From an uncultured bacterium (lineage in GTDB: Bacteria > Verrucomicrobiota > Verrucomicrobiia > Verrucomicrobiales > DEV007), in contig CAXBMO010000001.1 in assembly GCA_963977015.1 (NCBI GenBank), positions 64,001 through 128,000 of the forward strand: a stretch of 64,000 bases of DNA, given 5' to 3'. Shown here piece after piece: positions 31,522 through 52,300 of the stretch (position 1 is the stretch's first letter; the number at the start of each line of letters is the position of its first letter). The notes under the pieces are model-generated. The model saw only the letters and a list, made by a program, of their open reading frames with translations. It did not search any database and was not told the origin of the DNA. Both the position numbers and the translations under genes were made by a program.

Positions 31522-32247
31522 TTAGAAAGAAACCGTGACGCTTGCACCACCGTGCACGTCGTCATCTTCACCTGCGTCAGACAAGTCCTCGAGAGGGAAG
31601 TTGCCACCGACGTAGATGTCGAACGTTGCTGCTTCCGTCATGGACCAGCTAAGGCCAGCGGTAGCGAATGCGTGGTTGAAGCTGCTAACACCGTAGTAGT
31701 CATCGCCGTAGCCAATGCCTGCTCCGAGTCCAAGCTCAAGACAATCGGTAAGAGGAATGCCTTTGCTTGCGCTCAGCTCGTAATACCAGCCAGCGGTGGT
31801 TTCGTCATAGACGACCAATGCGCCCAAGTCGAAGATGTCACCAACGGAGTAACCGAGGCTAAGAGCACCTTCCAGTGCTTCAGTATCAGCTTCTGCGAAG
31901 TAGAACCAAGTAGCACCAATGCCTGCGTCGAAAATCCACAATGGGAAGTTCAAGAATGCATAGACGTCCAACTCATCAAAGTTAGCTGGATCTTGAGTTG
32001 GGTTGATGTACCAAGTTCCGAAGTTCAAGCTCAGCGTGTCGCTGAAGTCGTAGTTCAGATCTACTCCGGTCCAAGGTGCGTCGCTTCCGAAATCGGTACC
32101 ACGGAACAGGTAAGTGGTTTCGTAACCTGCAGAAACAGAACCGTAGAATGGAACTGCGCATACGGGATCTTCAATAACTGGCATTTCACCACCGACCAGG
32201 ATTGCTGGAGCAGCTAGTGTCGCCAAGAGGACAGTTAGTTTTTTCAT
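31522..32247 (-). CDS. Putative outer-membrane beta-barrel porin (TorF/Gcw_chp-like)
   Basis: Signal peptide MKKLTVLLA, TYLFRG motif, alternating beta-strands, C-terminal Phe. Confidence 0.75.
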   Translation of the reverse strand: MKKLTVLLATLAAPAILVGGEMPVIEDPVCAVPFYGSVSAGYETTYLFRGTDFGSDAPWTGVDLNYDFSDTLSLNFGTWYINPTQDPANFDELDVYAFLNFPLWIFDAGIGATWFYFAEADTEALEGALSLGYSVGDIFDLGALVVYDETTAGWYYELSASKGIPLTDCLELGLGAGIGYGDDYYGVSSFNHAFATAGLSWSMTEAATFDIYVGGNFPLEDLSDAGEDDDVHGGASVTVSF

Positions 32248-32302
32248 ATTAAGGTGTGTTGACTTGTGTTGGTTGTTTACTCGAAACGTGAGTTGAATAC
32301 AG

Positions 32303-32319
32303 AGCAGAAAGGATGCCAA
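32303..32319 (-). promoter_or_regulatory. Sigma-54 promoter (porin)
   Basis: Minus strand TTGGCATCCTTTCTGCT (GG-N10-GC), ~55 nt before ATG. Confidence 0.7.
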
Positions 32320-32392
32320 GTTAGGATAAATCGTTCCCCGGCGCTTTAAATCAGTATTCGTGCGGGACTCTAACAGTAAGCTTTGAAATAAT

Positions 32393-34180
32393 TCAACCAT
32401 TTCTGACGAAATTTCGCCAGTTTTTCACCTCCGTGATTCGTTTTGCCCGTTGGAGGATGAAATTTTCGCAGAGAAAGCCGGGAATTACCTCCCCAGAAGC
32501 CATTCTAATCTTCCCAATTCCAAGAGGCTCGGGAATTTGAGTGACAAATTCGCCAAACTCTCGAAGGGGCAGGGCCCAAACCTCGACTTCGATCGATTTC
32601 CCGGCGTCTTCATTTCTGACAAGGCCGGGGCGTGGCGGCAAATTGTCCATTTCCGGAAGCGCGTAGAGGTCGTAGCAGGGCGCTGTCTCAGCCGTGCCGA
32701 GAAATCGCCCTTGTCGCTCCGTGAGTTGATGATTGAGCGGTAATCCACGCATGTGAGCGCCACAGACGACCAGAGGGCTCCATCCTTCGGGGACACTGGT
32801 GCCGGTTTCCGTCCCTGAGAGGGAGGGAGGAGTCGCTGAATCGAATCGATCAGCAAGTTCGAGCAGCTTGCGGTCGTGGAACGCTGGTGCGAAAAAAGTA
32901 ACACCGAAGGGAAGGCCGGAATCCAGTTTCCCGGCGGGAAACGCGGTCGCGCTGTAATCCAGCAGGTTCATGAAATTGGTGTAGTAACCCAAATTGGAGT
33001 TGAGCTGAATTGGCTCGGCTTCGACTTCAGCGGCTTTGTAGATCGTGCCAGCGGTTGGAGTCAGAATCACATCGACCAACTTCCAGGCTTCGTCGGCCCG
33101 GCGTTTCAAAGCGCGAAGTCGATATTCTGCGTTGAAGGCATCGACAGCCAGCGGTTTGGCGCCTCCTTCTACGATCGTTCGAGTTACCGGGTGAAGAATC
33201 TCCGGCCGGGTCTTGAACACCTCTTCCATTGCGGCGTAGCGCTCAGCAACCCAGGGGCCTTCGTAAAGCAGACGCGCCGCCTCCAGAAATGGGGAAAAGT
33301 CGATCGATACCAATTCTCCGCCAGCCTCTTGCAGCTGCTTGATCTTCTCGGCGAAAAGGGCGCGAGCCGAATCATTGCCGAAAAATTCCAATTGGTCCGC
33401 GTTTGGGACTCCAAAGCGAAAATGCTGCCCCAGTGGAGCGGCTTCCGGAGATGTCGGATCTTCTCGAGCATAGGCGTCCGAGGGATCGAACACCGCTGCC
33501 ACGTCGAGGATGGCTTCTGCATCTCCTGAGTTGTTGGCGAAAATGGAGACGCAATCCAAAGTCTTGCAGGCGGGAAAGACGCCCGAGCAGCTGAGAAGGC
33601 CGCGGCTTGGCTTGTGACCCACCAATTCGTTGAAGGCTGCGGGGATTCGGCCCGATCCTGCGGTGTCGGTGCCGAGAGAGAAGCTGGCAAATTCTTGTGC
33701 CACGGCTATGGCCGATCCCGAGCTTGATCCGCCGGGGATGTATTCCGGATCAAAGGCGTTCTCCGGAAACCCATACGGGGATCGAACTCCGACCAATCCG
33801 GTCGCAAACTGGTCGAGATTCGTTTTTCCGATCGGAATCGCCCCTGCGTCGATCAGTGTTTGCACGACAAACGCCGATCGCTCGGGGTCGTAGGCAAATT
33901 CGGGACAGGCAGCAGTGGTTGGCGCGCCTTTCAGATCAATATTGTCTTTGATGGCGAAGGGAACTCCGAAAAGCGGCAATGACGCGGGATCGAGGGACTC
34001 GATTTGCTTCGCGTATTCCAACAACTCGTCGAGCGAGAGCCGGTGGATCCAAATCCTTGTGGGCTCGGCCTTGGTGATCGCCTCATCCAGGGCTTGAACG
34101 AGTTTTGTGGGAGTCCAATCGCCGCCAGCATACGCTTCGCGAAGGGATTTGAGGTCCAAATTGGGTAGCTTGGTGCTCAT
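32393..34180 (-). CDS. atzF: Allophanate hydrolase
   Basis: Amidase signature FAIKDNID, GGSSSGSA, GTDTAGSGR; C-terminal VVCGAHMRGLPLN domain. Confidence 0.95.
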   Translation of the reverse strand: MSTKLPNLDLKSLREAYAGGDWTPTKLVQALDEAITKAEPTRIWIHRLSLDELLEYAKQIESLDPASLPLFGVPFAIKDNIDLKGAPTTAACPEFAYDPERSAFVVQTLIDAGAIPIGKTNLDQFATGLVGVRSPYGFPENAFDPEYIPGGSSSGSAIAVAQEFASFSLGTDTAGSGRIPAAFNELVGHKPSRGLLSCSGVFPACKTLDCVSIFANNSGDAEAILDVAAVFDPSDAYAREDPTSPEAAPLGQHFRFGVPNADQLEFFGNDSARALFAEKIKQLQEAGGELVSIDFSPFLEAARLLYEGPWVAERYAAMEEVFKTRPEILHPVTRTIVEGGAKPLAVDAFNAEYRLRALKRRADEAWKLVDVILTPTAGTIYKAAEVEAEPIQLNSNLGYYTNFMNLLDYSATAFPAGKLDSGLPFGVTFFAPAFHDRKLLELADRFDSATPPSLSGTETGTSVPEGWSPLVVCGAHMRGLPLNHQLTERQGRFLGTAETAPCYDLYALPEMDNLPPRPGLVRNEDAGKSIEVEVWALPLREFGEFVTQIPEPLGIGKIRMASGEVIPGFLCENFILQRAKRITEVKNWRNFVRNG

Positions 34181-34182
34181 AA

Positions 34183-37100
34183 TTATTTTTCCAGCTCAAG
34201 AATCGCCAAAATCTGGCCGGCGCTGACGCTGGCTCCTTCTTCCACCAGAATCTCGCGAAGCTTACCGGTCTCTGGCGCTCCGACCGAAATTTCCATTTTC
34301 ATGCTTTCCACGATGAGAAGAGTTTGATCTTCGGTGACCGAGTCGCCGGGCTTTGCCTCAATCTTCCAAAGGCTTCCCGCAACCGGCGAAGTTACCGCTT
34401 CGCAGCCGTCGGGAATCTCGATAGCATCCTGTTGAGTCGGCAATTCGGTTTCTTCCGCCTCGAAACTCATCGCGCCGCTCGCTTCCCAGCGTTCGCGTTC
34501 TTCCGCAAATGCTTGGCGCTGAGTCTCTCGAAACGATGCGATGCTGGTGTCGTTCTCCTTCAGAAACGCGTGGTAATCTTTCGGGCGAAATGTGGTTTCT
34601 TCGATTTTGATCTCATATTGGCCGGTCAAAAACTGGCGGCGCATTTCAAGAAGTTGATCTGCCTCGACCGGAAACCACCGAATTTGGTCAAAAAAGCGCA
34701 GCAGCCACGGCTTTCCTGCCTCAAAATGCTCAGTAGTGTTAAATCTATTCCAGACTGGAAGCGTGCGTCCCACAAACTGATAGCCGCCGGGACCTTCCAT
34801 CCCATAAATGCAGAGGTAGGCTCCACCAATTCCAACGGCATTTTCCGGAGTCCAGGTTCGCGCCGGATTATATTTCGTCGTGACGAGGCGATGTCTCGGG
34901 TCGAGTGGGGTGGCGACTGGAGCACCCAGGTAAACATCGCCAAGGCCCATCACGAAATAGCTCGCGTCATAAACGATTCGGCGAACCTCATCGACTGATT
35001 CGAGCCCGTTAATTCGGCGAATGAACTCAATATTGCTCGGGCACCACGGGGCGTCAGCCCGAACGATCTGCATGTATTTGTCGATCGCTTCCTGAGTCGC
35101 GGGATCATCCCAACTCAGCGGCAGATGGACGATTCGGCTCGGAAACTCCATTTCGTCCGGCGAAGGCAGGCTGCTTTCCGCGCTTTCGATCAGCTTGAGC
35201 ACGTCTTTTCCCTGAATTTGAGTCGGATCGAATTGCACCTGCAGCGAACGAATCCCGGGCACGAGTTCGAGCAGTCCGTTGAACGGAGCCGCCTGAATTG
35301 CGTCATGAAGCGCTTGAACTCGGAATCGTAAATCGAGATCGAGCACCAAATCGCCAAACTCGACCAGAATGACGCCGTCTCCGCTTTGGCGAAAAATCAC
35401 CCCACGCTCATCAATGGCGTCAAGAATGGGCGGCGTTCGACGGGAGGAGACGCTGGCGTCGCGAACTGTCGTCTCGCGAATTCCTTCTTCCTGAGACAAG
35501 AGAATACTCTCCGCGTCTTCATTGGAGACGGAAACAAAGCGGATGGAGTCACCCGGCTTCATTTGGCCCATTTTCCAGAGATCGGCACGAATGATCACCG
35601 CCGGACAGACGAATCCACCCAGACTGGGGCCGTCCGGTCCAAGGAGAATTGGCATGTCCCCCGTGAAGTCGATCGAGCCGACGCAATAGGCGTTGTCGTG
35701 AATGTTGGAGGGGTGAAGACCGGCTTCTCCCCCATCTCGGCGTGCCCATTTGGGTTTTGGACCGATCAATCGAATTCCAGTTCGGTCCGAATTGTAGTGA
35801 ACCTCCCAACTTGTCGAGAAAAAGGTTTCGATGTCGGAATCCGTAAAAAACTCGGGGGCTCCGTGTGGCCCGTAAACAACGCGGACTTCCCACTGGTTTG
35901 TCAGATCCGGGCGATTGACGTCTGACGGGGAGGGGAGGGCTTCAACGGATCCTGCCAAGTGCAGAACGTCGCCGGTTTTGAGTGCTCTGCCGCCGTGGCC
36001 ACCGAATTTTCCCAATCGAAAGGTGGCGCGACTTCCCAGGTATTCCGGAACATCCACTCCTCCCTGAATCAGGAGATATGCGCGTTGGCCCGGGCCGGAA
36101 ACGTCCTTGAGTTTTAAAACCTGACCCGCATTCACGGACACGGGAGCGAATCGCTCGATCGGCTCTCCATCGAGCATGGCGTTCATATCAGCGCCGGTCA
36201 GGCAAATGACCGTGCTCGAGTTGAATTTCAGTTTCGGTCCTCGGACTGCCATCTCCAATCCGGCCGCTGCTTCGTCATTACCGAGAATCTGGTTTCCCAA
36301 CCGGAAGCTCAACGGATCAAAAGGTCCTGATGGAGGAACGCCGACATCCCACATCCCGATTCGTCCCGGATAATCCTGGATGGTCGTCTCCAGGCCCGGA
36401 TCCAGCACATCGATCGTCGTCGGTGCATAGGCGAAGTCGTTCAAGAAGCGGGTGGTAATCGTGCCCTCGACAAAGGCTTCAGATTCCAGAATGCTCGAAA
36501 CGTAAGCTTGGTTCGTTTCAATTCCGTGGCAGCCCAAGGTCGACAGCGCTTTTTTCAGGCCCTCGGTCGCTTTGGTGCGGTCGGACTCATGGACGATGAC
36601 CTTCGCGACCATGGGGTCGTAAAAACTGGGGACCTCGGTTCCAGACTTGATCCAGGTGTCGCAACGGGCGTTCTCCGGGGCGGTGAACTCGGTGACCAAA
36701 CCGCTGCTGGGTTGGAAATTCTTGTTCGGGTCTTCCGCATAAATCCGGGTCTGAATCGCGTGCCCCTTCGGGCTTGCCGAAGCCGCCAGCTCATCGATGG
36801 AAGGCAAGTCGCCGGCTGCCAGACGAATCATCCATTCGACCAGGTCAATTCCCCAGACTTCCTCGGTCACCCCGTGCTCGACTTGTAGGCGAGCGTTCAC
36901 CTCCAGGAAGTAAAAACGGCGGTCAATGTCGTCCCAAAGAAACTCGACGGTGCCCGCTGAGCGATAGTTGACGGACTTGGCAATCCGAATCGCAGCATCG
37001 GCGATTGCCTGGCGTTCTTCATCGCTCAACCCGGGAGCGGGCGTCTCCTCGATGACCTTCTGATTGCGGCGTTGCGCAGAGCAATCGCGTTCGCCAAGCG

Positions 37101-37764
37101 CAATCACGTTGCCTTTTCCATCTCCGAAAACCTGGACTTCAATGTGACGTGCGCGCTCGATGTATTTTTCGAGAAACAGGCTGGGGTCGCCAAAGTTGGA
37201 TTGGGAGAGGCGCCGGACCTGATCGAACAGGGTTGGAACTTCCTCGGCAGAATACGCGATTTGCATCCCAATTCCTCCACCTCCGGCGGAAGATTTCAGA
37301 ATCACCGGAAACCCGACTTTGATTGCCGTTTCCAGGGCTTCTTCCGCAGTTTTCAAGAGGTCGCTGCCTTCCAGCAGTGGAACCTGGGCATCGCGCGCGA
37401 TATCGCGACACACATGTTTGAGGCCACAGGTCTCGAGCTGCTTGGGAGTTGGGCCGATGAACGCAATTCCGGCCTCTTCGCAGGCATTCGCGAATCCCGC
37501 GTTTTCGCTCAAAAAACCGTAGCCGGGGTGGATGGCTTCCGCACCGGTTTCCCTGGCGGCTTCAATGATTTTCTGAACATCAAGATAGGTTTCGGAGGCT
37601 AGGTTTCCCGGCAAAAGAACCCCTTCGTCCGCATCCAGTGCGTGGAGGGATTCACGATCCGGATTCGAAAAGACGGCAACTGACCCAATGTTCAGTTTGC
37701 GAAGCGTGCGTTGAATCCGGCAAGAGATGGCGCCACGGTTGGCGATAAGGACTTTCTTAAACAT
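34183..37764 (-). CDS. uca: Urea/guanidine carboxylase
   Basis: Biotin carboxylase domain (LIANRG, RDCSAQRRNQK), carboxyltransferase domain (GLHPSNIHD, TTKYNPARTWT), biotinyl ESMKME. Confidence 0.95.
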   Translation of the reverse strand: MFKKVLIANRGAISCRIQRTLRKLNIGSVAVFSNPDRESLHALDADEGVLLPGNLASETYLDVQKIIEAARETGAEAIHPGYGFLSENAGFANACEEAGIAFIGPTPKQLETCGLKHVCRDIARDAQVPLLEGSDLLKTAEEALETAIKVGFPVILKSSAGGGGIGMQIAYSAEEVPTLFDQVRRLSQSNFGDPSLFLEKYIERARHIEVQVFGDGKGNVIALGERDCSAQRRNQKVIEETPAPGLSDEERQAIADAAIRIAKSVNYRSAGTVEFLWDDIDRRFYFLEVNARLQVEHGVTEEVWGIDLVEWMIRLAAGDLPSIDELAASASPKGHAIQTRIYAEDPNKNFQPSSGLVTEFTAPENARCDTWIKSGTEVPSFYDPMVAKVIVHESDRTKATEGLKKALSTLGCHGIETNQAYVSSILESEAFVEGTITTRFLNDFAYAPTTIDVLDPGLETTIQDYPGRIGMWDVGVPPSGPFDPLSFRLGNQILGNDEAAAGLEMAVRGPKLKFNSSTVICLTGADMNAMLDGEPIERFAPVSVNAGQVLKLKDVSGPGQRAYLLIQGGVDVPEYLGSRATFRLGKFGGHGGRALKTGDVLHLAGSVEALPSPSDVNRPDLTNQWEVRVVYGPHGAPEFFTDSDIETFFSTSWEVHYNSDRTGIRLIGPKPKWARRDGGEAGLHPSNIHDNAYCVGSIDFTGDMPILLGPDGPSLGGFVCPAVIIRADLWKMGQMKPGDSIRFVSVSNEDAESILLSQEEGIRETTVRDASVSSRRTPPILDAIDERGVIFRQSGDGVILVEFGDLVLDLDLRFRVQALHDAIQAAPFNGLLELVPGIRSLQVQFDPTQIQGKDVLKLIESAESSLPSPDEMEFPSRIVHLPLSWDDPATQEAIDKYMQIVRADAPWCPSNIEFIRRINGLESVDEVRRIVYDASYFVMGLGDVYLGAPVATPLDPRHRLVTTKYNPARTWTPENAVGIGGAYLCIYGMEGPGGYQFVGRTLPVWNRFNTTEHFEAGKPWLLRFFDQIRWFPVEADQLLEMRRQFLTGQYEIKIEETTFRPKDYHAFLKENDTSIASFRETQRQAFAEERERWEASGAMSFEAEETELPTQQDAIEIPDGCEAVTSPVAGSLWKIEAKPGDSVTEDQTLLIVESMKMEISVGAPETGKLREILVEEGASVSAGQILAILELEK

Positions 37765-37768: not shown

Positions 37769-38401
37769 TTAGTCCCAGATTAAAACGCGCACAGGTGTCG
37801 GGTTATACGCATTGCAGGGATTGTTGAGTTGAGGACAGTTCGAGATGAGCGCGATCACGTCCATTTCGGCTCGCATTTCCACATATCTTCCCGGTGCCGA
37901 GATTCCATCGGCAAACGTTAGTTTCCCTTCAGGAGTAACCGGTACATTCATGAAGAAATTGATATTGCAGGTGATGTCTCGTTTTCCCATGTCGTGGCCC
38001 CACTCGGTAACGCCACATAGGAAGCTATCGCGACACGCGTGCATGTATTCCTTGTCCAAGGCATAGCGCATGGTGTTGCTTTCGCGGGAGCAGGCGCCGC
38101 CGACAGTGTCATGACGGCCGCAGGTGTCCGCTACGATGGTGAGGAGAACATTTCCCTCGGTGGAGATAAGTTCGGTTCCCGTCGTGAGATAAAGGTTTGC
38201 CTGACGTTGGATCGTGTCGCTGGCGCTATACCGATCACTGACATCATGGGCGTTGTAGAAGAGCGTGTCAGCCGCTTGGTTTCCTTCCAGATCGAGGATG
38301 CGAAAGGTTTGGCCCTTCTTGATTTCACGCATCCAATGATCACCGGCAAGAACCGTGTAATCATAGGATGCGTCTTCTGGGACTAGTGAGGATTCGGTCA
38401 T
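37769..38401 (-). CDS. cgdB: Carboxyguanidine deiminase subunit B (DUF1989)
   Basis: [39 protein letters not shown]. Confidence 0.88.
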
Positions 38402-39126
38402 GAGCGCAGCGCGTGATAGTTTGTGGTATTCAGATAAGCTCGTTCGTTCTCCGGGCAGGAAGCTCGGTATTGGCCGTCATTCTCCGATTCAAAAACACTC
38501 AAAAGTAGAGGCTTGGGAGAGTAATCGGGATTGGGATCGAGCGGATGCTGGCAGGTATTCAGAATCACCAGCGTGTCCATTTCAAAACTCAGATCAACGA
38601 CGGACCCGGGAGGAGATGCGCCTTCTGCGTAAGTGAGATTTCCGTCTTCATCAGAAACCACTTTGCTAAACCAATTCACATTGGGAACCAGATCCCGTTT
38701 GCCAAGACCCCATTTTGCCATCTCAATCAAAAAATCGTCTTTTGCGTTTCGGTGGAAGTCATTGCGCGCGGTTTGATAGTTGTTCTCCCCATACTTTTTG
38801 AGCACCAACCCGGCATTCGAACATCCGCAGACGGTGTCGTGCCATCCCATGGTATCTTCCGAGATGCCGGCAAAGATTCTGCCCATGTCAGAATGCAGGC
38901 AGTAAGGTTTTGTCAGGAAAAAGATCTGCTGCCCCTTCAGGGTGTCCGGCATGTTATAACGCTCCAATGGTTGGTCCGCATTAAAGAGCAACATTCCGAC
39001 ATTCACTCCTCCTTCGAGGTCCGTCATTCGCAAGGTTTTTCCCTTCCCAATGACCTGGGACCACATTCCGCCGCCGCGAATGGTTGTTTCAAAGCGAAGC
39101 TTGTCTTGAGGTATGGTCGTGCTCAT
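38398..39126 (-). CDS. cgdA: Carboxyguanidine deiminase subunit A (DUF1989)
   Basis: [39 protein letters not shown] overlap with cgdB. Confidence 0.88.
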
Positions 39127-39593: not shown

Positions 39594-39616
39594 ACTTATG
39601 TTTTCGAAAGTATTAC
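39589..39616. promoter_or_regulatory. Candidate operator of the NikR-like regulator (overlaps its ATG)
   Basis: Imperfect inverted repeat TCATACTT-N10-AAGTATTA; minus strand reads GTAATAC-N14-GTATGA. Confidence 0.5.
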
Positions 39617-39626
39617 CAATGTTTGG

Positions 39627-39643
39627 AGCATTTATTGTGCCAA
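39627..39643 (-). promoter_or_regulatory. Sigma-54 promoter (regulator-cgdAB-uca-atzF operon)
   Basis: Minus strand TTGGCACAATAAATGCT (GG-N10-GC). Confidence 0.8.
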
Positions 39644-39663
39644 TACAAGGCCTTTGAGGGGAT

Positions 39664-39680
39664 TTGGCGCGGAACCTGCT
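39664..39680 (+). promoter_or_regulatory. Sigma-54 promoter (ABC ATPase)
   Basis: TTGGCGCGGAACCTGCT (GG-N10-GC), 36 nt before ATG. Confidence 0.7.
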
Positions 39681-45146: not shown

Positions 45147-45178
45147 AGCGAAGATAGGATTACGTCAGAACATAGAGT

Positions 45179-45195
45179 AGCAATATATGTACCAA
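45179..45195 (-). promoter_or_regulatory. Sigma-54 promoter (Rieske operon)
   Basis: Minus strand TTGGTACATATATTGCT (GG-N10-GC). Confidence 0.75.
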
Positions 45196-45206
45196 TTGCA
45201 GTGGTA

Positions 45207-45223
45207 TTGGCACGCTGCCTGCT
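45207..45223 (+). promoter_or_regulatory. Sigma-54 promoter (aldehyde reductase)
   Basis: TTGGCACGCTGCCTGCT (GG-N10-GC). Confidence 0.75.
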
Positions 45224-45236
45224 TCATACTGGCACG

Positions 45237-46253
45237 GTGATCATTCCAGCTTTCTCGACTTCCGCGCCGAACCTTCCTTTCGCCCTAACCGAAATTGAAC
45301 TGCCGGACGCTTTGGGGCCCGATCAGGTTGAAATCGCGGTCGAAAGTTGTGGGCTTTGCCACAGCGATCTCAGCATGAAGAATAACGACTGGGGCCTCAC
45401 CAGTTACCCTTTTGTTGGGGGACATGAAGTGGTGGGCCGGGTTGCGAAGAAAGGGGAGTTTGTCACCCATTTGGAGGTCGGGCAGCGTGTTGGTTTGGGG
45501 TGGTATTCCGGAGCCTGTTTAACGTGTCCAACCTGCATGGGTGGGGATCACAATCTCTGTCCGCAAGCGGAAGGGACGATCGTGGGACGACATGGTGGAT
45601 TTGCGAGTCGGGTTCGTGCCCAGGCGATCTGGTGCGCTCCGATCCCCGAGAAGCTGAACCCGAACGTTGTCGGCCCGCTCTTCTGCGGTGGAATCACGGT
45701 GTTTAATCCGATTGTTCAGAATCGAATCGTCGCTTCGGATCACGTCGGAGTCATCGGCATTGGAGGGTTGGGGCACCTGGCGCTCCAGTTTCTTTCTGCG
45801 TGGGGATGTGAAGTCACGGCTTTTTCCACGAACCCTTCCAAAGAGGAAGAAGCGCGAAGTATGGGGGCCGATCATTTCGTGAATTCGCGGGATTCAGCTT
45901 CGTTTAAGGCTCTGGAAGGCACCTTTGATATGATTCTGGTCACCGTGAATGTCGCGCTGGATTGGCCCGCCTACATGACGATGTTGAAGCGTAAGGGGAC
46001 ACTTCATGTCGTCGGCGCCGTTCCTCCGATCGAAACCTCGTCGGAGCCTCTCATCGAACACCAGAAATCTCTGACCGGCAGTCCGTTGGGAAGTCCGGCC
46101 CTCGTGCAGACCATGTTGAACTTCTGTGCCCGAAAAGAGATTGCTCCCATCACTCAGTCATTTCCATTGAGCGAGATCAATGCGGCATTCGCTGAGTTGG
46201 AGGCTGGAAATGCTCGCTATCGAATCGTCTTGGAAAACGATCTTCAGGATTGA
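45237..46253 (+). CDS. Zn-dependent NAD(P)H aldehyde reductase (CAD/Ahr-like)
   Basis: CHSD, GHE, CxxCxxCx7C structural Zn site, PLFCGGIT, GIGGLG; probable GTG start at 45237. Confidence 0.9.
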   Translation: MIIPAFSTSAPNLPFALTEIELPDALGPDQVEIAVESCGLCHSDLSMKNNDWGLTSYPFVGGHEVVGRVAKKGEFVTHLEVGQRVGLGWYSGACLTCPTCMGGDHNLCPQAEGTIVGRHGGFASRVRAQAIWCAPIPEKLNPNVVGPLFCGGITVFNPIVQNRIVASDHVGVIGIGGLGHLALQFLSAWGCEVTAFSTNPSKEEEARSMGADHFVNSRDSASFKALEGTFDMILVTVNVALDWPAYMTMLKRKGTLHVVGAVPPIETSSEPLIEHQKSLTGSPLGSPALVQTMLNFCARKEIAPITQSFPLSEINAAFAELEAGNARYRIVLENDLQD

Positions 46254-46885
46254 ACGTTGTCCCAGACTGATCCCGCCCGAGGAGTGTCGATGCGATAGTC
46301 CGTGTAGAAACGTTCAAACATCGTCGCCCCCAACGTTCGAGCCTCCTCAATGGCGCCCGAAGGATCAGCGTCGACATCTCCGCGCTTGTTTCCGATTCCC
46401 TGAACGACCCCGACAAACTCCGAGTACGTGTAGCGGGAGAACTCTTGAATCGAGTGAACGATCCCCATCGTGGCGGCGGGGTAGGATTCTTCCGAGCTGA
46501 TCACCAATCCCAGCTTCTTTCCGCACATCGCCTTCGCGTATTCATCGCTCTTGGGGTGTGATGCTGCATAGTAGCAGAATGAGCGATCGAAAAACGTCTT
46601 CAATTGGCCGCTCATGCCATACCAATAAAGCGGAGTGGCAAAGATAATACCGTCAGCCGGAAGATACTTGGTCAGGAACAGTTCGCGGTAATCGTCATCG
46701 ATTGAGCATTCGCCGTTCTCATTTCGGCACTGACGGCAATCCTTTAGAAAATGGCGAAGATAGTCGTCAATGTAGATTAATTCGGCATCGTGGCCCGAAG
46801 ATTGGGCACCTTCCAGTGCGGCATGGGCAAGGCGAAAGGAATTTCCGTCTCGTCTTGGACTTGAACTCAGGATCAAAACCTTCAT
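46244..46885 (-). CDS. Flavodoxin-fold NAD(P)H:FMN reductase / iron-sulfur flavoprotein-like protein
   Basis: SSPRRDGNS, CRQC-x6-C, ATPLYWY, LKTFFDR; ATGA overlap with upstream gene. Confidence 0.85.
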   Translation of the reverse strand: MKVLILSSSPRRDGNSFRLAHAALEGAQSSGHDAELIYIDDYLRHFLKDCRQCRNENGECSIDDDYRELFLTKYLPADGIIFATPLYWYGMSGQLKTFFDRSFCYYAASHPKSDEYAKAMCGKKLGLVISSEESYPAATMGIVHSIQEFSRYTYSEFVGVVQGIGNKRGDVDADPSGAIEEARTLGATMFERFYTDYRIDTPRAGSVWDNVQS

Positions 46886-47436
46886 GGGCGACTCCATGCC
46901 AGATTTTGGACTTGAGGATCGAGAGGTGTCTCCGCAATCCCGTTGGTATAGTTGCTGATCAGTTTCACGGCCAGACCGAGAATGACTTCCATCGCCTGGG
47001 TGTCGCTGTATCCCGCTTCCCAGAAGGCGTCTCGTTCCTCCATCGGAGGGTGGCCGCGATGTTCAATGAGCGAAGCGGTGAAACGCCGGAGCGCTTCCAG
47101 TTTGGGATCGGACAGTGGTGTTCCCTGCCGCAACGCTTCGACGTCCTCCGGTTTCATACCCGCGTTCTTGCTGAGCAAGGTATGCCAGGGGACGCAATAC
47201 GTACAGTTGTTCAGGAAATTCGCGGTTTGATAGACGACTTGTTGCTCGATCGGTGTGAGCGTTGTTTTCGCAAACAAATCCCAAAGTTGGACGTAGCCTT
47301 CCAAGGCTGGTGGAGCAGAGGCAAGCGTCCTTTCCAGGTTCGGAATCATCCCGAAGTCGCCTTGGACCTGGTTTAACAGATCCCGGGACGCTTCCGGAGC
47401 CGTCTCGAACTGGTGCTGAGGGAATTTGTCAGTCAT
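46882..47436 (-). CDS. AhpD/carboxymuconolactone decarboxylase family protein
   Basis: GMIPNL, NNCTYCVPWH, SNYTN motifs. Confidence 0.88.
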   Translation of the reverse strand: MTDKFPQHQFETAPEASRDLLNQVQGDFGMIPNLERTLASAPPALEGYVQLWDLFAKTTLTPIEQQVVYQTANFLNNCTYCVPWHTLLSKNAGMKPEDVEALRQGTPLSDPKLEALRRFTASLIEHRGHPPMEERDAFWEAGYSDTQAMEVILGLAVKLISNYTNGIAETPLDPQVQNLAWSRP

Positions 47437-47442: not shown

Positions 47443-48864
47443 CTAAACAAAGGTCAAGCGGTCCTCGCGTTGCTGATCGTAGATCGTGTAGAACTGCTTC
47501 TCCCATTCCATCATCTTCTGTTCCACGTAGATATCCTTCATCTCGCCAAAGACGCCATCGACGAATGGATCGGAATCGAAGGCTTCAATGGCGTGAAGCA
47601 AGGTCCCGGGAAGAAATTCGATTCCAGCCTTCCGGATTTCCTTCTTTGAGCGGAGGTAGAGATTGTCGTTGAGTGGCTCTCCCGGATCCATCTCCTGCTC
47701 AATACCATCGAGCCCGGCAGCCAGTTGGAGCGCCGCGGCAAGGTATGGGTTGACGCTCATGTCGGGAGCGCGGTTCTCGATGCAGTAACGGTTTGGGGGC
47801 AAGCGCAGCATCGCGGATCGATTGTTCGCCCCATAGGTAACCAAAACAGGAGCCCAACTGACATCCGGCATGTCGCCTTGAGCGAGGAACCCCTGATAGC
47901 TGTTGTAGGTTGGTGAGGTTACGGCCGTGATCGCAGCCGCATGTTTCAGAATTCCGGCGAGGAAATGATAGGCGAGCTTGGAAACCTGGATTCCATGGGC
48001 ATCAATGAATTTGTTGGAACCGGCTTCGGGGGCGAACTGGTTTTCGCCGGATTCGGTGTCTGCCAGGGACATGTTGAAATGACAGCCGGAACGGAAATCA
48101 TCCGCAAACGGTTTGGGCATGAAGCTCGCGACGCAGCCAATGGAGCTTGCAATCTGTTTGGCCATGAGCCGGAGAAAAACGAGGCGATCGGAAGTGGTGA
48201 GAGCATCTGCATAATTCGAGTCGAATTCGTACTGACTTTGACCGCCCTCTTGATCGAAGGAGAAAACTCCCCAATCCAACTGGTTCATGGCCTTTACCAT
48301 CGGGTCGAGAAAGTCCATGGAATTCTGCGCCTGGTAGATGTCGTATGCTGGGCATAGGCCTCCGTATTTTTGTGGGGCGAGGCTGGTGCGCTTTCCGGTT
48401 TCCGGATCCACCCGAAAGACGTAGAACTCAGGCTCAACTCCGAGATTGAAGGTGAACCCCATTGAGGCCGCTCGCTCAAGTTGGCGCTTCAGGATCTGAC
48501 GGGAATCGTTGGGATAGAGGGTTCCGTGGTGATAGAGATCGCTGAAAAAGTACGCAAAGCGTTCATCCCAAGGGCAGACGATTGCCGTATCAAGATCGGG
48601 GACGGCAGCACATTCATCTTCTTGAGGGCCTACCAGTCCCATTCCTTCCATCGCTCCGACGGTAAATAGTTCCGAACCGTTTGCCATTTTCTCCAACGCG
48701 GCGATGGGATTGACCTTGGCTTTTGGGACGCCATGAACATCCACATAAGTGGAGAGCAGGTATTCCACGCCTTTGGACTCTAGTTCGCTCTTGAGGCGGG
48801 CGATCTTTTCAGGATCGCACATCGTGGAATCGGGGACAGCAAAGACAGGAGTTGTGTCGGGCAT
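47443..48864 (-). CDS. Glutamine synthetase-like ligase (GlnT/GmaS-like, probable gamma-glutamyl-amine ligase)
   Basis: YVDVHGVPKAK, GVEPEF, FMPKPF, SGCHFNMSL, NNRSAMLR, ENRAPD..VNPYLA. Confidence 0.85.
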   Translation of the reverse strand: MPDTTPVFAVPDSTMCDPEKIARLKSELESKGVEYLLSTYVDVHGVPKAKVNPIAALEKMANGSELFTVGAMEGMGLVGPQEDECAAVPDLDTAIVCPWDERFAYFFSDLYHHGTLYPNDSRQILKRQLERAASMGFTFNLGVEPEFYVFRVDPETGKRTSLAPQKYGGLCPAYDIYQAQNSMDFLDPMVKAMNQLDWGVFSFDQEGGQSQYEFDSNYADALTTSDRLVFLRLMAKQIASSIGCVASFMPKPFADDFRSGCHFNMSLADTESGENQFAPEAGSNKFIDAHGIQVSKLAYHFLAGILKHAAAITAVTSPTYNSYQGFLAQGDMPDVSWAPVLVTYGANNRSAMLRLPPNRYCIENRAPDMSVNPYLAAALQLAAGLDGIEQEMDPGEPLNDNLYLRSKKEIRKAGIEFLPGTLLHAIEAFDSDPFVDGVFGEMKDIYVEQKMMEWEKQFYTIYDQQREDRLTFV

Positions 48865-48883: not shown

Positions 48884-49666
48884 TTAAATATTGATCGGAG
48901 AAAGGTTGTTCCAGAATTTGGAATCCAGGGGCGGCGTTTCGGTTTTGGCTTGGGTCACCAATTCAGCAAGTCGGTCTCCCATTTTTCGGAAAAGTCGTTC
49001 ACCGTCTTCGGCGTTGCCTTCACTCGGTTTCCCGGTGATTCCGTTCTTGCTGGTTTGGGCAACCGGATAGCTGAAAATGGTGTCCGTCGTCCGGTCGGGA
49101 TCATCTTCCACCATGTCCATCCTGACCGTTTCTGGCGCGAGATGGAGCATCAAATCGGTTTCAGACTTATTGGCATGCAAGTCTTCAGCATCCTTTGTAA
49201 ATTCGTCCCAGATTTCCGGTGACAGGGTAAACGTGTTCAACCCCGCGATTTGCAGTTTCCCCAGATGGCGCAAACGAAGCTTGTCGACCGCAACCCGCAG
49301 GGACGCGTCGTTCCCGAAATGGGAATTGACGATGAGCAGGCGATTCCAACCTGTTGCGACCGTCCAATCGACGATGTCGCCCAGCACCTGGATGAGCGTC
49401 TCGTGCCGAAGGGAAAACGTTCCCGGCCACTTGGTGGTATGACCGGTGGAGACGGTGAAGGAGATGGGAGGTAGGACCGGAATCTGGGTCGCCGCTGAAG
49501 CATAGGCGCAGATTCGAGAGGCAATGACCGTATCGGTATTGATTGGAAGATGGGGGCCATGCTGCTCGGTCGCGCCCAAGGGCAGGATGAGCATCGATAC
49601 ACCACTCGACTGAAGTTCCTCGATCGCTTTCCAAGAAAGCGACTCTAAATGAACGGTATCACCCAT
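48884..49666 (-). CDS. Creatininase-family amidohydrolase
   Basis: PLGATEQHGPHLP..TD, VNSHFGN, HA...ET metal-ligand motifs. Confidence 0.9.
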   Translation of the reverse strand: MGDTVHLESLSWKAIEELQSSGVSMLILPLGATEQHGPHLPINTDTVIASRICAYASAATQIPVLPPISFTVSTGHTTKWPGTFSLRHETLIQVLGDIVDWTVATGWNRLLIVNSHFGNDASLRVAVDKLRLRHLGKLQIAGLNTFTLSPEIWDEFTKDAEDLHANKSETDLMLHLAPETVRMDMVEDDPDRTTDTIFSYPVAQTSKNGITGKPSEGNAEDGERLFRKMGDRLAELVTQAKTETPPLDSKFWNNLSPINI

Positions 49667-49671: not shown

Positions 49672-51099
49672 TCAGACCTTGGAGGTTTGCTTGGTCAGCA
49701 ACTCATCCATTGCTTCGTTGCGTTCGTTTGCTCCCTGCTTCAGCCAATTGGGAAGCCAAAGAAGCGAACGCATCATGAATCCGGTCTTCTTTTCCGCGAC
49801 CCATGGGAAGAGGACGGGGCGCATCTTGGAGAGAAATTGGTCCGAAACGAATCCGGTGATCCCGATGAGCAGGATCGTCGCGTAAACGATGTCGAAGTTA
49901 AACCGGCGACCGTGGGTGTCGATGATTTCGGTGAGGCCGCTTTTGACGCCCATCAGTTCGGCGATGACGAGCCAAGTCCAGGCCCAACCGAGGAGAATAC
50001 GGAGGTCGTTGTACAAGTTGTGAATCACCCCGGGGATCACCACCTTAAAAACAAGATCAAACTTTCGAGCGCCCAAGGTCTGCGCGGCGTCCAGGAGCCC
50101 AGTGTCAAGCTGGCGGGTCGTGTTCGCCGTCATCAGAATGGCTTGGCAAACGGTCCCGAGAAAGACGAGCGCAACTTTGGGGGCATCGTGGCTTCCCAGC
50201 AGGAAAACAAGAAGCGTTCCAAACGCGGGAGCTGGCATGTAGCGAAAGAAATCGACGAAGGGCTCGAAGAGCTTTGAGAAAAAGTCAAACGTGCCCGCGA
50301 GCAGGCCAATCGGCAGACCGATCAAGCATGCAAAGAGGAATCCCATGAAGACAATGCCGAGCGAGTCGGCGTATCGATTGCCAAGACCGGCATCGACGCG
50401 CTGGGACGTTCCAAACATCAGGTCTCGCCCGGCCAAGAGAACCTGGTGGGGCGCCGGGAGGTAGGAAGGTCTGCCAACAGCGCGTTCGCCATGCGGAATC
50501 AAATGCAGGAGCGGTTCCTTGGGAAAGGTGGATGAATCGTATTGATCGCCGCCTGCACTCATCATCTCCCAATTGATCTTGATGATTTCCAGATTCTCGG
50601 CGGAAAGCAGCTTGGTGGGGACTGTGCGACTTCCCGTGGCAAGGTCTCCCCAAATTGCGAAGAGGGCGTCGTTGTCCGTTCCCTGCTCCTCCGTCATCCA
50701 TTCCATCTCAACGGCAATGGGATGGAGCTTGCGGAGGATCTTTGAGTTCGATCGCGAACTAACGCTGATGCCTTCGGGGAGTTCGCCTTTTCCCGCGTGA
50801 TAGTCTTGAATTTGCGAGTTCGTCTCGCGAACCATTTCCTGGAAGGCGAGGTAGCGCTCTTTCTCCATCACGTGGCTAGGGCGATAGATTGTTGGATAGT
50901 CACCACTCTTTACGTCAGTGGTGATCTTCAATTTGTGACTGATATCCCACAGTCCGGGGGTGTAAGCGAAAAAGGACCAGAGAATAAGAGGGACCGCAAA
51001 CGATGCGACCATCAAGACGCTGACTCGAAAGTGGTTGAGGGAGCCCCGAACCTGAAACCAGGATTCGCTACCACTCTTGCCTGGACTCTTTTTCGACAT
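49672..51099 (-). CDS. ABC transporter permease (NitT/TauT-type) with large soluble insertion
   Basis: C-terminal DFFRYMPAPAFG, LLDAAQTLGA (EAA-like), GWAWTWLVIAEL; ~170-aa hydrophilic segment after TM1. Confidence 0.9.
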   Translation of the reverse strand: MSKKSPGKSGSESWFQVRGSLNHFRVSVLMVASFAVPLILWSFFAYTPGLWDISHKLKITTDVKSGDYPTIYRPSHVMEKERYLAFQEMVRETNSQIQDYHAGKGELPEGISVSSRSNSKILRKLHPIAVEMEWMTEEQGTDNDALFAIWGDLATGSRTVPTKLLSAENLEIIKINWEMMSAGGDQYDSSTFPKEPLLHLIPHGERAVGRPSYLPAPHQVLLAGRDLMFGTSQRVDAGLGNRYADSLGIVFMGFLFACLIGLPIGLLAGTFDFFSKLFEPFVDFFRYMPAPAFGTLLVFLLGSHDAPKVALVFLGTVCQAILMTANTTRQLDTGLLDAAQTLGARKFDLVFKVVIPGVIHNLYNDLRILLGWAWTWLVIAELMGVKSGLTEIIDTHGRRFNFDIVYATILLIGITGFVSDQFLSKMRPVLFPWVAEKKTGFMMRSLLWLPNWLKQGANERNEAMDELLTKQTSKV

Positions 51100-51167: not shown

Positions 51168-51195
51168 AACATCACACTAAAAAGGGAGGAAGTTA

Positions 51196-52197
51196 CTACT
51201 CAACGGACTTTGCATATTCTGCAGTGAGAGAAGGATCGATATAAGATTCGTAGTCCTTCGCTTCCGTGTAGACTTCGTACTTTACGTTGAAATCATCAGA
51301 GATTTTGCTGGATCCGTAGATGGACTTCAGACCTTCAGCACTCTCCCAAACTGGAAGAACTTCTTCCAATGTAAGAATGTAGGTTCCGGCCAGGAAAGGC
51401 TCGTATTCATCAGGTGTAACGCTAACGCGTCCTGCGAGGATCTCGAGAACCTCATCGATGTTGTCCTCGTCTTTCAGGAAATCGACGACTTTATACCACA
51501 CGGAAATGACCTTCATCCAATCATCGCGATTCTCCTTCAGTGATTCAGGAGTCACGAAAAGGCAGTCATAGATAAGGCCAGGGCAGTCTTTGGAGGTGTA
51601 GATGGCTTTGGAGCCAGGGACCTCGCGAAGTGCTGTTCCCGAGCTGGGCTGCCAAGCGCAAACCGCGTTGACCGCTCCGGTTTTGAGAACCTGAGGAGTC
51701 TGGTCTGTAGGAGTGTTGACGATCTCGATGCTCGACTCTTCCATATCGTTATCCTCAAGCGCTTGAAGGACGAGAAGGTGAGGGACGAAGCCTTCCTCCA
51801 GACCTACCTTCTTACCGGCAAGGTCTTTGACAGAGTCGATGCCTTTTTCTGCAATCAACATGTCGTTGCCGTTCGAGTAGTCATTAATCAAGATACATAC
51901 GGAAGGCTGGTCGGTGCCGATTACGAGAGCGTCACCATTTGTCATATGACATCCATCCAAGTTTCCTGCTGCGAATGCGTCGAGCGAACCGACATAGTCC
52001 ATCCACTTGAAGTCCACTTCGACTCCGGCTTCTTCAAACCATCCTTTCTTGATGGCGATTTCCCAAGGCGTCCAACCGGGCCAGTCACTGTAGGCAATGG
52101 TTAGAGGCTCAGCGTTGACACTATTAAGACCGACAGCTGCGATGAGGGGAAGCGCAAGACGTTGAAGCAAGCGGTTCACGGATAAGGGCAATTTCAT
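51196..52197 (-). CDS. ABC transporter substrate-binding protein (urea-carboxylase-associated/NMT1-like)
   Basis: Signal peptide, [24 protein letters not shown] motifs. Confidence 0.9.
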
Positions 52198-52228
52198 AGA
52201 GATAGTTAGTTAGTTGATTGCAATTTTA

Positions 52229-52257
52229 GTATTACCGTGAGAGTGTCGCCGTATGAT
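52229..52257. promoter_or_regulatory. Second candidate operator of the NikR-like regulator
   Basis: GTATTAC-N15-GTATGA between the sigma-54 site and the ATG; resembles the site at 39589-39616. Confidence 0.4.
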
Positions 52258-52283
52258 TGCGGAAACGTCTCCGGATACTGAAG

Positions 52284-52300
52284 AGCATTAGTCATGCCAA
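52284..52300 (-). promoter_or_regulatory. Sigma-54 promoter (SBP-permease-creatininase-GS-AhpD-flavoprotein operon)
   Basis: Minus strand TTGGCATGACTAATGCT (GG-N10-GC). Confidence 0.75.

Follow-up and report, generated by a model that had tools for sequence, protein, structure and literature searches.

A layered guanidine-assimilation gene region in Verrucomicrobiota with a candidate Rieske module for alkylguanidine dealkylation

Introduction

That guanidine truly serves bacteria as a source of nitrogen is a recent insight, and the natural sources and fates of substituted guanidines, such as methylguanidines, products of creatinine decay and breakdown products of metformin, are largely undescribed. 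Two non-homologous sinks for free guanidine are relevant here. In the first, guanidine is carboxylated by a biotin-dependent carboxylase, deiminated by the carboxyguanidine deiminase subunits CgdA and CgdB, and hydrolysed by the allophanate hydrolase AtzF to give ammonia and CO2; in the second, a guanidinase (GdmH) is combined with urease. This analysis concerns a stretch of 64,000 nucleotides from an uncultured bacterium of the verrucomicrobial lineage DEV007 (positions 64,001 to 128,000 of contig CAXBMO010000001.1, assembly GCA_963977015.1; hereafter the window), and within it a region at about 31.5 to 52.3 kb where the genes of the carboxylase pathway are accompanied by an operon encoding a Rieske oxygenase and by another encoding a creatininase-family hydrolase (Crn) and a glutamine synthetase (GS)-like ligase. 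The 21 proteins of this region were scanned against Pfam and NCBIfam.

Among described systems, the MgdH/MgdL operon of Vreelandella boliviensis adds a hydroxylase and a lyase dedicated to the hemiaminal to the genes of the guanidine carboxylase pathway, according to extracts of the published report (PMC12508155). The same extracts relate the dedicated lyase to the unusual stability of N-(hydroxymethyl)guanidine, and give abiotic creatinine decay as the proposed natural source of methylguanidine (PMC12508155). Like the present region, that operon combines an ABC importer with CgdAB, carboxylase and allophanate hydrolase, and has an oxygenase and further proteins inserted. The logic proposed for it may also be shared: the N-alkyl carbon would be hydroxylated, the stable hemiaminal resolved, guanidine passed to the carboxylase and formaldehyde released. 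The enzymes themselves differ. MgdH is a 2-oxoglutarate/Fe(II) dioxygenase, whereas the oxygenase here is of the Rieske type and no 2-oxoglutarate/Fe(II) domain was found among the 21 proteins; the candidate counterparts of MgdL are a protein with the fold of the formylglycine-generating enzyme (FGE) and a TIM-barrel protein. Nothing in the MgdH/MgdL operon corresponds to the short-chain dehydrogenase/reductase (SDR) and its paired CE4 deacylase, to the creatininase-like hydrolase or to the GS-like ligase found here. In function, the Rieske module would be an analogue of the methylguanidine demethylase MgdH/MgdL without being homologous to it.

Compared with the canonical carboxylase pathway, the same four enzymes are present here above curated cut-offs and the importer is of the same NitT/TauT type, but the operon of this phylum routinely adds Crn-like and GS-like enzymes and a NikR-like regulator. 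With respect to the GdmH and urease route, four related genomes flank the same cassette with a close GdmH homologue and urease genes, whereas the window uses the carboxylase route and no GdmH homologue occurs in the region studied. An extended guanidine-assimilation operon is a known kind of system, built here from enzymes without described function. An earlier note on this DNA, made from the letters and open reading frames (ORFs), knew of no described pathway with this gene set, and none turned up in the full-text literature searched, with subscription-only papers and supplements lying outside that search; a review of guanidine physiology (PMC12186494) makes no mention of creatininase, Rieske enzymes or glutamine synthetase. 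As far as can be seen, the new elements are the exchange of the carboxylase pathway for guanidinase and urease, the presence of GFA-family and SugE-like neighbours, the co-variation of SDR and CE4, the two ligase paralogues and the layered organization of the region.

Association of the Rieske cassette with guanidine degradation

The region may well be a nitrogen-scavenging supra-operon arranged around free guanidine, in which the Rieske module dealkylates alkylguanidines, probably by demethylation; this is the reading that we favour, and it is put forward tentatively. The evidence comes from a comparison of related loci. Nineteen Rieske orthologues were aligned and the alignment was scanned against one genome per species. 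Of 600 matched stretches, 593 encode a relative, and the best 80 were kept (L001-L080). L001-L055 are of Verrucomicrobial origin and share 46-88% identity with the query. L056-L080 consist of 24 stretches from other phyla, at most 49% identical and lacking the cassette, together with L076, a short Opitutaceae fragment with a CE4 gene; these were dropped, and L001-L055 with L081-L100 make up 75 cassette-related loci. Of the Verrucomicrobial loci, 27 extend for 6 kb or more to either side of the Rieske gene, and in this set genes were scored within 10 kb by tblastn. A sample of 401 genomes served for the phylum as a whole, where a first-look filter scored few candidates per genome and the counts may be too low.

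Carboxylase-pathway genes lie within 10 kb in 16 of the 27 loci, and cgdA is found elsewhere in the genome in seven more. The last four (L036, L037, L038 and L040) have no cgdA genome-wide, one of these genomes being a complete 5.9-Mb chromosome. There the cassette starts with a gene for a 498-residue arginase-family protein and is followed downstream by ureD, ureAB, ureC, ureF and ureG. The arginase-family protein matches the solved structures 7esr and 7oi1 at 4e-155 and 9fek at 1e-152; in extracts of the published work 7OI1 is the GdmH of Synechocystis and 9FEK the guanidinase of Nitrospira inopinata (PMC11410670). Since the cassette is wired to either of two non-homologous guanidine sinks, guanidine would be the common intermediate, which the cassette either delivers or shares. 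This exchange of sinks is the strongest evidence obtained and points to free guanidine as the shared intermediate. A guanidine-degrading system was present in all 27 genomes tested, compared with cgdA in 42 of the 401 sampled genomes.

Two further neighbours are in keeping with this link. Of the 75 cassette-related loci, 13 have a gene of the formaldehyde-activating GFA family (PF04828, 1.4e-25) within the Rieske module or next to it, a hint of formaldehyde; in L020, L021, L034, L035 and L041 it follows the Rieske gene directly. In L006 and L008 the module contains a gene for a SugE-like protein of the SMR family (70-75 bits, cut-off 126); SugE/Gdx proteins are presumed here to export guanidinium.

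Layered organization of the region

The earlier note had described a single cassette of ten enzymes and suggested a gene-neighbourhood search for their co-occurrence. Such a search shows the cassette genes to be conserved with one another and with the guanidine carboxylase genes, many genomes having a collinear cluster of about 15 genes, yet the unit itself dissolves into layers. The arrangement is non-random, as judged from the counts in the 27 loci. Several genes are present in 23 or more loci (TIM barrel in 25; FGE-fold protein, Crn, GS-like ligase and ABC ATPase in 24 each; substrate-binding protein (SBP) in 23). Others are less frequent (CE4 in 19, SDR in 17, GFA in 6, AhpD-like protein in 4, and the Ahr-like aldehyde reductase and the flavodoxin-fold protein in 1 each). 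The guanidine genes were counted 16 times for cgdA and cgdB, 14 for the carboxylase gene uca, 12 for nikR, 11 for atzF and 4 for the GdmH gene. In many genomes the genes run in one direction in the order SBP, permease, ATPase, Crn, GS, Rieske, (GFA), (SDR), FGE, (CE4), TIM, NikR, cgdA, cgdB, uca and atzF, where brackets mark genes not always present. Examples are L020, L034 (which carries most of the cassette), L035, L041 and L082/L083. Cultured carriers are available: L035 is from Luteolibacter marinus (NBU1238), and L023, from Haloferula sargassicola (NBRC 104335), carries this gene set in a single direction too, Crn coming after GS and both GFA and TIM ahead of Rieske.

The phylum sample separates the layers further. 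In the 401 genomes cgdA was found 42 times, a Crn orthologue 18 times and a Rieske orthologue, the marker used for the Rieske module since FGE and TIM were not scored in this sample, four times; all 18 and all 4 fall within the 42. A GS-like gene follows Crn in all 16 loci that were read from the 18 Crn genomes. Thirteen regions were fetched from Crn genomes, 12 of them from genomes without a Rieske orthologue and one from a genome (G249) that carries Rieske on another contig. All 13 are simple operons of the form SBP-...-Crn-GS-NikR-cgdA-cgdB-uca, with permease, ATPase and atzF undetected in some, and Crn-GS and NikR are therefore standard parts of the guanidine operon of this lineage. The region as a whole is made of four layers: the carboxylase pathway with its NikR-like regulator; an importer with Crn and the ligase; an optional Rieske-FGE-TIM module, with or without SDR and CE4; and an accessory trio. 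The members of this trio (Ahr, AhpD-like protein and flavoprotein) were found only in close relatives.

The Rieske-FGE-TIM trio also occurs by itself with its own SBP, in G005 and G249 on contigs apart from cgdAB and in L044. The host of the window has a second, paralogous module of this kind on contig C19 (L081, 49000-68999; genes at about 7010-12190), with the order SBP-FGE-TIM-Rieske-GS, the ligase there being of paralogue B (see below). Its FGE, TIM, Rieske and GS proteins are 44-51% identical to those of the window and its SBP is 25% identical. It lies between two sulfatase genes, away from guanidine genes.

The guanidine carboxylase pathway and transport

Based on ORFs, Pfam and NCBIfam matches and gene junctions, five transcription units can be recognized between 31.5 and 52.3 kb, and all the genes named in the earlier note were recovered at the positions given there. 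Unit 1, on the minus strand, contains the NikR-like regulator (39123..39593), which heads the cgdAB operon and had been left out of that account, followed by CgdA (UAAP1; 38398..39126), CgdB (UAAP2; 37769..38401), the biotin-dependent urea/guanidine carboxylase (34183..37764), allophanate hydrolase (32393..34180) and a putative outer-membrane beta-barrel protein (31522..32247). Unit 2 is a single ABC ATPase gene on the plus strand (39717..40625), divergent from unit 1. Units 3 and 5, on the minus strand, are the Rieske operon and the importer-hydrolase-ligase operon, and unit 4 is the Ahr-like gene alone on the plus strand. The tight coupling within operons that had been noted before is confirmed: ATGA overlaps join nikR/cgdA, cgdA/cgdB, Rieske/SDR and FGE/CE4, a TAATG overlap joins CE4/TIM, and, provided that the second Met is the start of the FGE-fold gene, a TGATG overlap joins SDR/FGE. 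Most remaining junctions are gaps of 2-19 nt. The junctions of unit 1 are ATGA overlaps or gaps of 2-4 nt, apart from the barrel gene, which is set off by 145 nt.

The known guanidine carboxylase pathway is complete, as the earlier note had claimed, with all four enzymes above curated cut-offs. CgdA scores 304.7 bits on TIGR03425 (cut-off 205.95) and CgdB 340.4 bits on TIGR03424 (cut-off 284.7); both have a DUF1989 domain, and their genes lie side by side with a 4-nt overlap. The carboxylase scores 1806 bits on TIGR02712 (cut-off 1303.85), has the full set of Pfam domains and carries the biotinylation motif ESMKM at K1156; its preference for guanidine over urea is something we infer solely from the adjacent cgdAB genes. 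AtzF scores 745.7 bits on TIGR02713 (cut-off 511.05) and has the Pfam domains Amidase and AH_C.

The last gene of the carboxylase operon, previously called a porin, is present as an ORF of 241 codons from its second Met and matches no Pfam or NCBIfam family. The barrel assignment was judged by eye from a signal-peptide-like N-terminus (MKKLTVLLATLAAPAILVGG) and a C-terminal Phe (...VSF), and among the related loci one weak relative, 25% identical, was seen in L035. Similarly, the flanking "ABC transporter" of the earlier note comes down to an ATPase gene. The encoded protein is of the NitT/TauT type (ABC_tran, 7.3e-36), and its best NCBIfam matches are the SaoA, nitrate and taurine ATPases, all below cut-off. 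The periplasmic SBP (NMT1/SsuA type; 51196..52197) and the permease (49672..51099) are the first genes of unit 5. The best NCBIfam match of the SBP is TIGR03427, again below cut-off. The permease domain (BPD_transp_1) covers residues 261-422 of 475, and the N-terminal extension of about 230 residues belongs to no family; permeases at related loci are mostly 285-370 residues long. In the 96-nt gap between the SBP and permease genes (51100-51195) there is an inverted repeat rich in G+C (coding strand, GGGCGCAACGCTG...CAGCGTTGCGTCCC); it may form a hairpin within the operon and so determine how much SBP is made relative to permease.

The oxygenase module

Unit 3 encodes, in order of transcription, the Rieske non-haem-iron oxygenase alpha subunit (43791..45146), the SDR (43006..43794), the FGE-fold protein (42329..43042), the CE4 deacylase (41469..42332) and the TIM barrel (40591..41469). 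The Rieske protein has the Pfam domains Rieske and Ring_hydroxyl_A and is CntA/GbcA-like, forming a new subfamily. Its best NCBIfam model is GbcA (138.5 bits, cut-off 670) and its best solved structure is CntA (5.1e-32), the match being limited to residues 53-268. C122, H124, C159, H162, E257, H260, H265 and D396 are invariant in the 19 aligned sequences, and D396 would be the third ligand of the mononuclear iron. The Rieske and mononuclear-iron ligands are shared with CntA and GbcA, including Glu at the bridging position; the protein differs from them in its score far below cut-off, in the partial coverage of CntA and in the lack of a CntB/GbcB-type reductase gene nearby. The carnitine monooxygenase CntA and the glycine betaine monooxygenase GbcA, both alpha-only Rieske oxygenases, cleave C-N bonds by hydroxylation of the carbon next to nitrogen, and the relationship was counted in favour of dealkylation.

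A reductase partner for the Rieske protein was not detected in the region by the Pfam scan. The flavodoxin-fold, NAD(P)H-dependent FMN reductase-like protein of unit 5 (46244..46897; Flavodoxin_2 and FMN_red) contains three closely spaced cysteines, Cys-x2-Cys-x6-Cys, in DCRQCRNENGEC. An iron-sulfur cluster might be bound there, and the protein could donate electrons to the Rieske enzyme in this lineage.

The FGE-fold protein (FGE-sulfatase, 1.4e-45) has PvdO (5hha) as its best match by sequence and by fold. Its structural model has a predicted local distance difference test (pLDDT) score of 89.4, and template modelling (TM) scores of 0.83-0.84 to PvdO and 0.78-0.81 to FGE structures. No Cys is invariant or nearly so in 28 sequences and the C-terminal segment RGGGWDSMPRLARPSNRD is without Cys, where we take the catalytic cysteine pair of FGE to lie. 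The absence of a conserved cysteine indicates that this is not a formylglycine-generating enzyme. The TIM barrel is xylose-isomerase-like and predicted to be metal-dependent (AP_endonuc_2, 1.8e-09), with E131, H133, D159, H162, H188 and E240 invariant. Its model (pLDDT 90.4) gave generic xylose-isomerase-like fold matches at TM scores of about 0.63 (sugar epimerases, AsbF and a C-glycoside deglycosidase), a profile search of solved structures gave one match (E 0.0089), and atlas and homologue searches returned the automatic name "sugar phosphate isomerase/epimerase".

The SDR (adh_short_C2, 4e-60) reaches no NCBIfam equivalog. The CE4 protein (NodB type; Polysacc_deac_1) has as its best solved structure 3rxz (2.4e-70), an entry of unknown function, and matches a PuuE structure at 2.9e-17. 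D27, D29, H102, H106, R140-P142-W143, D189-W190 and H234 are invariant in 22 sequences. By the definitions that we assume for the five NodB motifs (Asp-Asp, His-His, Arg-Pro-aromatic, Asp-Trp and Leu-x-His), all five are present, and the protein thus looks like a metal-dependent de-N-acylase and not a ring-opener of the PuuE type, which presumably lacks them. SDR and CE4 are gained and lost together: in the 27 loci both are present in 16 and neither in 7, with CE4 without SDR in 3 and SDR without CE4 in 1.

Proposed route from alkylguanidines to guanidine

In the reading favoured here, the Rieske module would strip an N-alkyl group, most likely N-methyl, from substituted guanidines. The Rieske monooxygenase would hydroxylate the carbon bonded to the guanidine nitrogen to form a carbinolamine, which could then be resolved in two ways. 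By the first, a lyase (the TIM-barrel metalloenzyme, the FGE-fold protein, or both) would split it into guanidine and an aldehyde. By the second, the SDR would oxidise it to an N-acylguanidine that CE4 would hydrolyse to guanidine and an acid. The aldehyde would be handled by Ahr in the window and by the GFA protein in other genomes. What was observed is the presence and conservation of the parts, from which we infer every enzymatic step of the Rieske module. Through conserved gene order and the exchange of two unrelated guanidine sinks, as many as seven uncharacterised enzyme families are linked to guanidine at this locus. If the proposal is true, it would describe a Rieske-based alkylguanidine dealkylase, new functions for FGE-fold, TIM-barrel and CE4 proteins, and a function for the widespread pair of creatininase-like and GS-like enzymes.

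A number of observations weigh against this proposal. The sampled genomes are related, and the counts given above overstate the independence of the loci. The absence of a Rieske orthologue from 38 of the 42 cgdA genomes makes the module dispensable for guanidine use. In L043 neither FGE nor TIM lies within 10 kb of Rieske, and a permease and an SBP gene are all that adjoin it. No cgdA was found in the metagenome-assembled genome, of uncertain completeness, that contains L006. The SBP scores 155.7 bits on TIGR03427, the family of uca-associated binding proteins, against a cut-off of 333.9, and the GFA and SugE-like assignments are at family level only. The FGE and TIM folds indicate no specific function, and the roles given to these proteins were assigned by elimination. 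No ferredoxin or reductase was found among 58 of 117 unassigned plus-strand ORFs in or near the cassettes, chosen by eye; these 58 gave permeases, SBPs, LuxR-type regulators, urease gamma subunits, SugE-like SMR proteins and RelB-like proteins. The sigma-54-type motif found upstream of the operons (see Regulation) shows no enrichment across the window, with 76 matches compared with a shuffle mean of 59.4 and 2 of 100 shuffles reaching 76. Finally, a GS-like gene adjoins Rieske in L010-L013, L015, L020, L033, L034, L045, L052, L081 and L082, and given this frequent adjacency the oxygenase could have a gamma-glutamyl conjugate as its substrate in place of a free alkylguanidine.

The hydrolase-ligase pair and alternative readings

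Unit 5 continues after the permease with Crn (48884..49666), the GS-like ligase (47443..48864), an AhpD/CMD-family protein (46882..47436; CMD, 4.5e-08) and the flavodoxin-fold protein; the AhpD-like gene and the flavodoxin-fold gene belong to the accessory layer, as does Ahr. The Ahr-like, NADPH-dependent aldehyde reductase (45237..46253, plus strand) probably starts at GTG 45237 and scores 462.1 bits on NF047908 against 470. It is present in L001 and L003-L005, close relatives, in addition to the single locus with full flanks. No enzyme outside the carboxylase pathway reaches an equivalog cut-off (Crn, GS-like ligase, Rieske, CE4 and Ahr).

Crn belongs to the creatininase family (Creatininase, 1.2e-63) and is not a creatininase orthologue; it scores 129.2 bits on the creatininase model TIGR04448 (cut-off 235) and 143 on MftE (cut-off 172). 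E34, H36, D45, H116 and H164 are invariant in 23 sequences and may correspond to the ligands of the binuclear metal site of creatininase. The ligase (Gln-synt_C, 3.7e-82), of the GmaS/type III GS clade, scores 433.7 bits on TIGR03105 (cut-off 469.6), and its best solved structure is the glutamate-methylamine ligase 9qur (3.1e-81). An amine-trapping role for such a ligase is plausible. There are two paralogues: B is widespread and 68-79% identical across the phylum, and A, that of the window, occurs in 13 loci. Where both are present A usually adjoins Crn, and B adjoins Rieske in four of seven loci (L011, L012, L013 and L082). At nearly all loci Crn has a GS-like gene next to it. With the importer, Crn and the GmaS-like ligase make up a module that is part of the standard guanidine operon of the phylum, and the most economical guess is that this module makes and breaks a gamma-glutamyl (N-acyl) bond to guanidine or to some small amine. 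As in pathways based on gamma-glutamylation (GmaS; PuuA/PuuD; the aniline dioxygenase AtdA1-A5), a GS-family ligase is paired here with an amide hydrolase and, at many loci, with a Rieske oxygenase. Those pathways differ in that the hydrolase here is of the creatininase family and not a glutamine amidotransferase (GAT)/peptidase C26, and genes of the N-methylglutamate pathway are absent from the region.

These features lead to the alternative that fares best, which we consider unlikely, though deserving of attention. The ligase would glutamylate the nitrogen of guanidine or of an alkylguanidine, Rieske with FGE/TIM would dealkylate the conjugate, much as aniline dioxygenase acts on gamma-glutamylanilide, and Crn, an acylguanidine hydrolase by family chemistry, would release the product. 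Where operons lack the Rieske module, ligase and hydrolase would provide a third means of handling guanidine, dependent on ATP and glutamate. The full set would be an unprecedented third route of bacterial guanidine assimilation, under a NikR-type repressor re-tuned from nickel to a guanidine-type ligand. The near-universal adjacency of Crn and GS-like genes, the conservation of paralogue B, the 13 simple operons with Crn-GS before NikR-cgdAB-uca, the placing of A by Crn and of B by Rieske, the module on contig C19 and the closeness of the ligase to glutamate-methylamine ligase are all consistent with it, and creatinine is itself a cyclic acylguanidine. Set against this, ligation and hydrolysis of one and the same bond make a futile cycle if nothing happens in between, the complete CgdAB-carboxylase-AtzF pathway is kept alongside and makes the pair look redundant for guanidine itself, and no gamma-glutamyl hydrolase of the PuuD or GAT type is present in the region. 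We know of no GS-family enzyme that acylates a guanidine nitrogen, which was also counted against this route.

A second alternative, and quite an improbable one, places the modules downstream, in amine salvage. The carboxylase pathway or a hydrolase would turn an alkylguanidine into an alkylamine such as methylamine, the ligase would form gamma-glutamylmethylamide, and Rieske would demethylate this to glutamine and formaldehyde, in place of the N-methylglutamate pathway. The scores of the ligase on TIGR03105 and 9qur would suit such a role, GbcA-type Rieske enzymes are established N-demethylases, GFA genes lie beside Rieske, and a stand-alone SBP-FGE-TIM-Rieske-GS unit exists on contig C19. 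It fails to explain why the module lies between guanidinase and urease genes in genomes without the carboxylase pathway, as guanidinase yields urea and not an alkylamine, and the Rieske trio often has its own SBP and no ligase (L044, L097 and L098). Methylguanidine is moreover an unproven substrate of the carboxylase pathway, and the published organism demethylates first, as far as extracts of the report describe it (PMC12508155).

The earlier note had itself favoured a substituted or cyclic guanidino or ureido substrate, such as a creatinine-like compound, which would be imported, ring-opened by Crn and CE4 and cleaved by Rieske, with guanidine or urea delivered to the carboxylase. Its interpretation is partly supported and its observation of the gene set confirmed. 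Oxidative dealkylation feeding guanidine to the carboxylase fits the exchange of sinks and the GFA genes beside Rieske, but the ring-opening steps are unsupported, and as a whole we find this version very doubtful. Creatininase-family and CE4 folds are indeed present, creatinine is a widespread nitrogen waste and its abiotic decay is a proposed source of methylguanidine, as noted in extracts of the MgdH/MgdL report (PMC12508155). However, Crn lies far below the creatininase cut-off and about as near to MftE, and it occurs in 14 sampled genomes without a Rieske orthologue, where the operon offers nothing to cleave creatine to guanidine. CE4 scores 69.9 bits on the PuuE equivalog (cut-off 424.6), keeps the full set of metal-deacetylase motifs and travels with SDR, not with Crn.

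In a last and highly improbable alternative, the Rieske and the hydrolase-ligase operons serve to break down different nitrogen compounds, for example quaternary amines, and are merely clustered with the guanidine genes in a common nitrogen-starvation regulon. The nearest characterised relatives of Rieske do have carnitine and glycine betaine as substrates, nitrogen regulons typically have sigma-54-type promoters, and the trios of G005 and G249 lie on contigs other than that of cgdAB, but a guanidine-degrading system accompanies the module in 27 of 27 genomes (cgdA in 42 of 401 in the sample), the sink is exchanged for guanidinase and urease at the same position, collinear clusters hold the module between importer and cgdA, and two loci have a SugE-like exporter gene inside it.

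Regulation

Control of the region seems to involve the NikR-like regulator and sigma-54-type promoters, unlike the MgdH/MgdL system, and no riboswitch was detected, Rfam at gathering thresholds giving two tRNAs and nothing else in the window; riboswitch control was rejected on this result. The NikR-like protein (RHH_1 1.6e-06, NikR_C 1.1e-21) is a ribbon-helix-helix regulator that scores 105.5 bits on NF003381 (cut-off 105). Nickel is taken here to be bound in NikR by three His and one Cys. In alignment to solved NikR proteins three of these four positions are missing: compared with the NikR of P. horikoshii (2bj1), the HxH...C stretch ("slhvhmdehncle") reads HxL...T, and "ynhd" reads "ydas" (His to Ala). 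Lacking the canonical nickel site, the protein is probably a repressor that senses something else. Relatives are present in 12 of the 27 Rieske loci and in 13 of the 13 simple operons fetched. In some cassettes LuxR-type regulators replace the NikR-like gene (L022, 5142-6350 and 9157-9891; L049, 7226-7948), one of them with a PDC sensor domain.

Five sigma-54-like -24/-12 elements lie in three intergenic regions, each aimed at the adjacent gene, where about 0.5 would be expected in 406 nt. The divergent region between nikR and the ATPase gene (39594..39716) has TGGCACAATAAATGC at 39642-39628 on the minus strand and TGGCGCGGAACCTGC at 39665-39679 on the plus strand, and the one that separates the Rieske operon from Ahr (45147..45236), also divergent, has TGGTACATATATTGC at 45194-45180 (minus) and TGGCACGCTGCCTGC at 45208-45222 (plus), the latter just 15 nt from the proposed start codon of Ahr. 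The regulatory region of the importer operon (52198..52390) has TGGCATGACTAATGC at 52299-52285 (minus). All five transcription units appear to use promoters of the sigma-54 type.

A candidate operator, TCATAC-N14-GTATTA, is found at 39590-39615 in the nikR region and is kept in the closest relative, L001. A similar element, TCATAC-N15-GTAATA, lies at 52256-52230 (minus) in the regulatory region of the SBP gene, and the exact 9-mer AGTATTACC is common to the two regions. The pattern TCATAC-N13-17-GTATGA with up to two mismatches has three sites in the window, compared with a shuffle mean of 4.4, and is thus not enriched. Two of these three sites are the ones in the nikR and SBP regulatory regions; at related loci the element is clear only in L001, and 10 of 40 matches lie near a gene start. 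A shared NikR-type operator is a lead only.

Genomic setting and neighbouring genes

The window is chromosomal and Verrucomicrobial, with rpoB and rpoC at 15.7-23.8 kb. The closest relatives of the proteins of the region are Verrucomicrobial, and matching DNA is found in marine metagenomes. The G+C content of 0.51-0.575 across the region is unremarkable and no integrase or transposase domain was found in Pfam scans of the larger ORFs of the window; a recently acquired island was rejected on these grounds, and "island" is a functional term only.

Adjoining the region at 52391-56003 are genes for a 653-residue FG-GAP repeat protein and a sulfatase, neither of which was found at any related locus. 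Farther on, at 60456-62743 and downstream of a gene for a hybrid sensor kinase of 1432 residues, are genes for a DUF6263 protein and a protein with a bpX4 domain, the latter belonging to the MoxR-vWA-beta-propeller ternary system.

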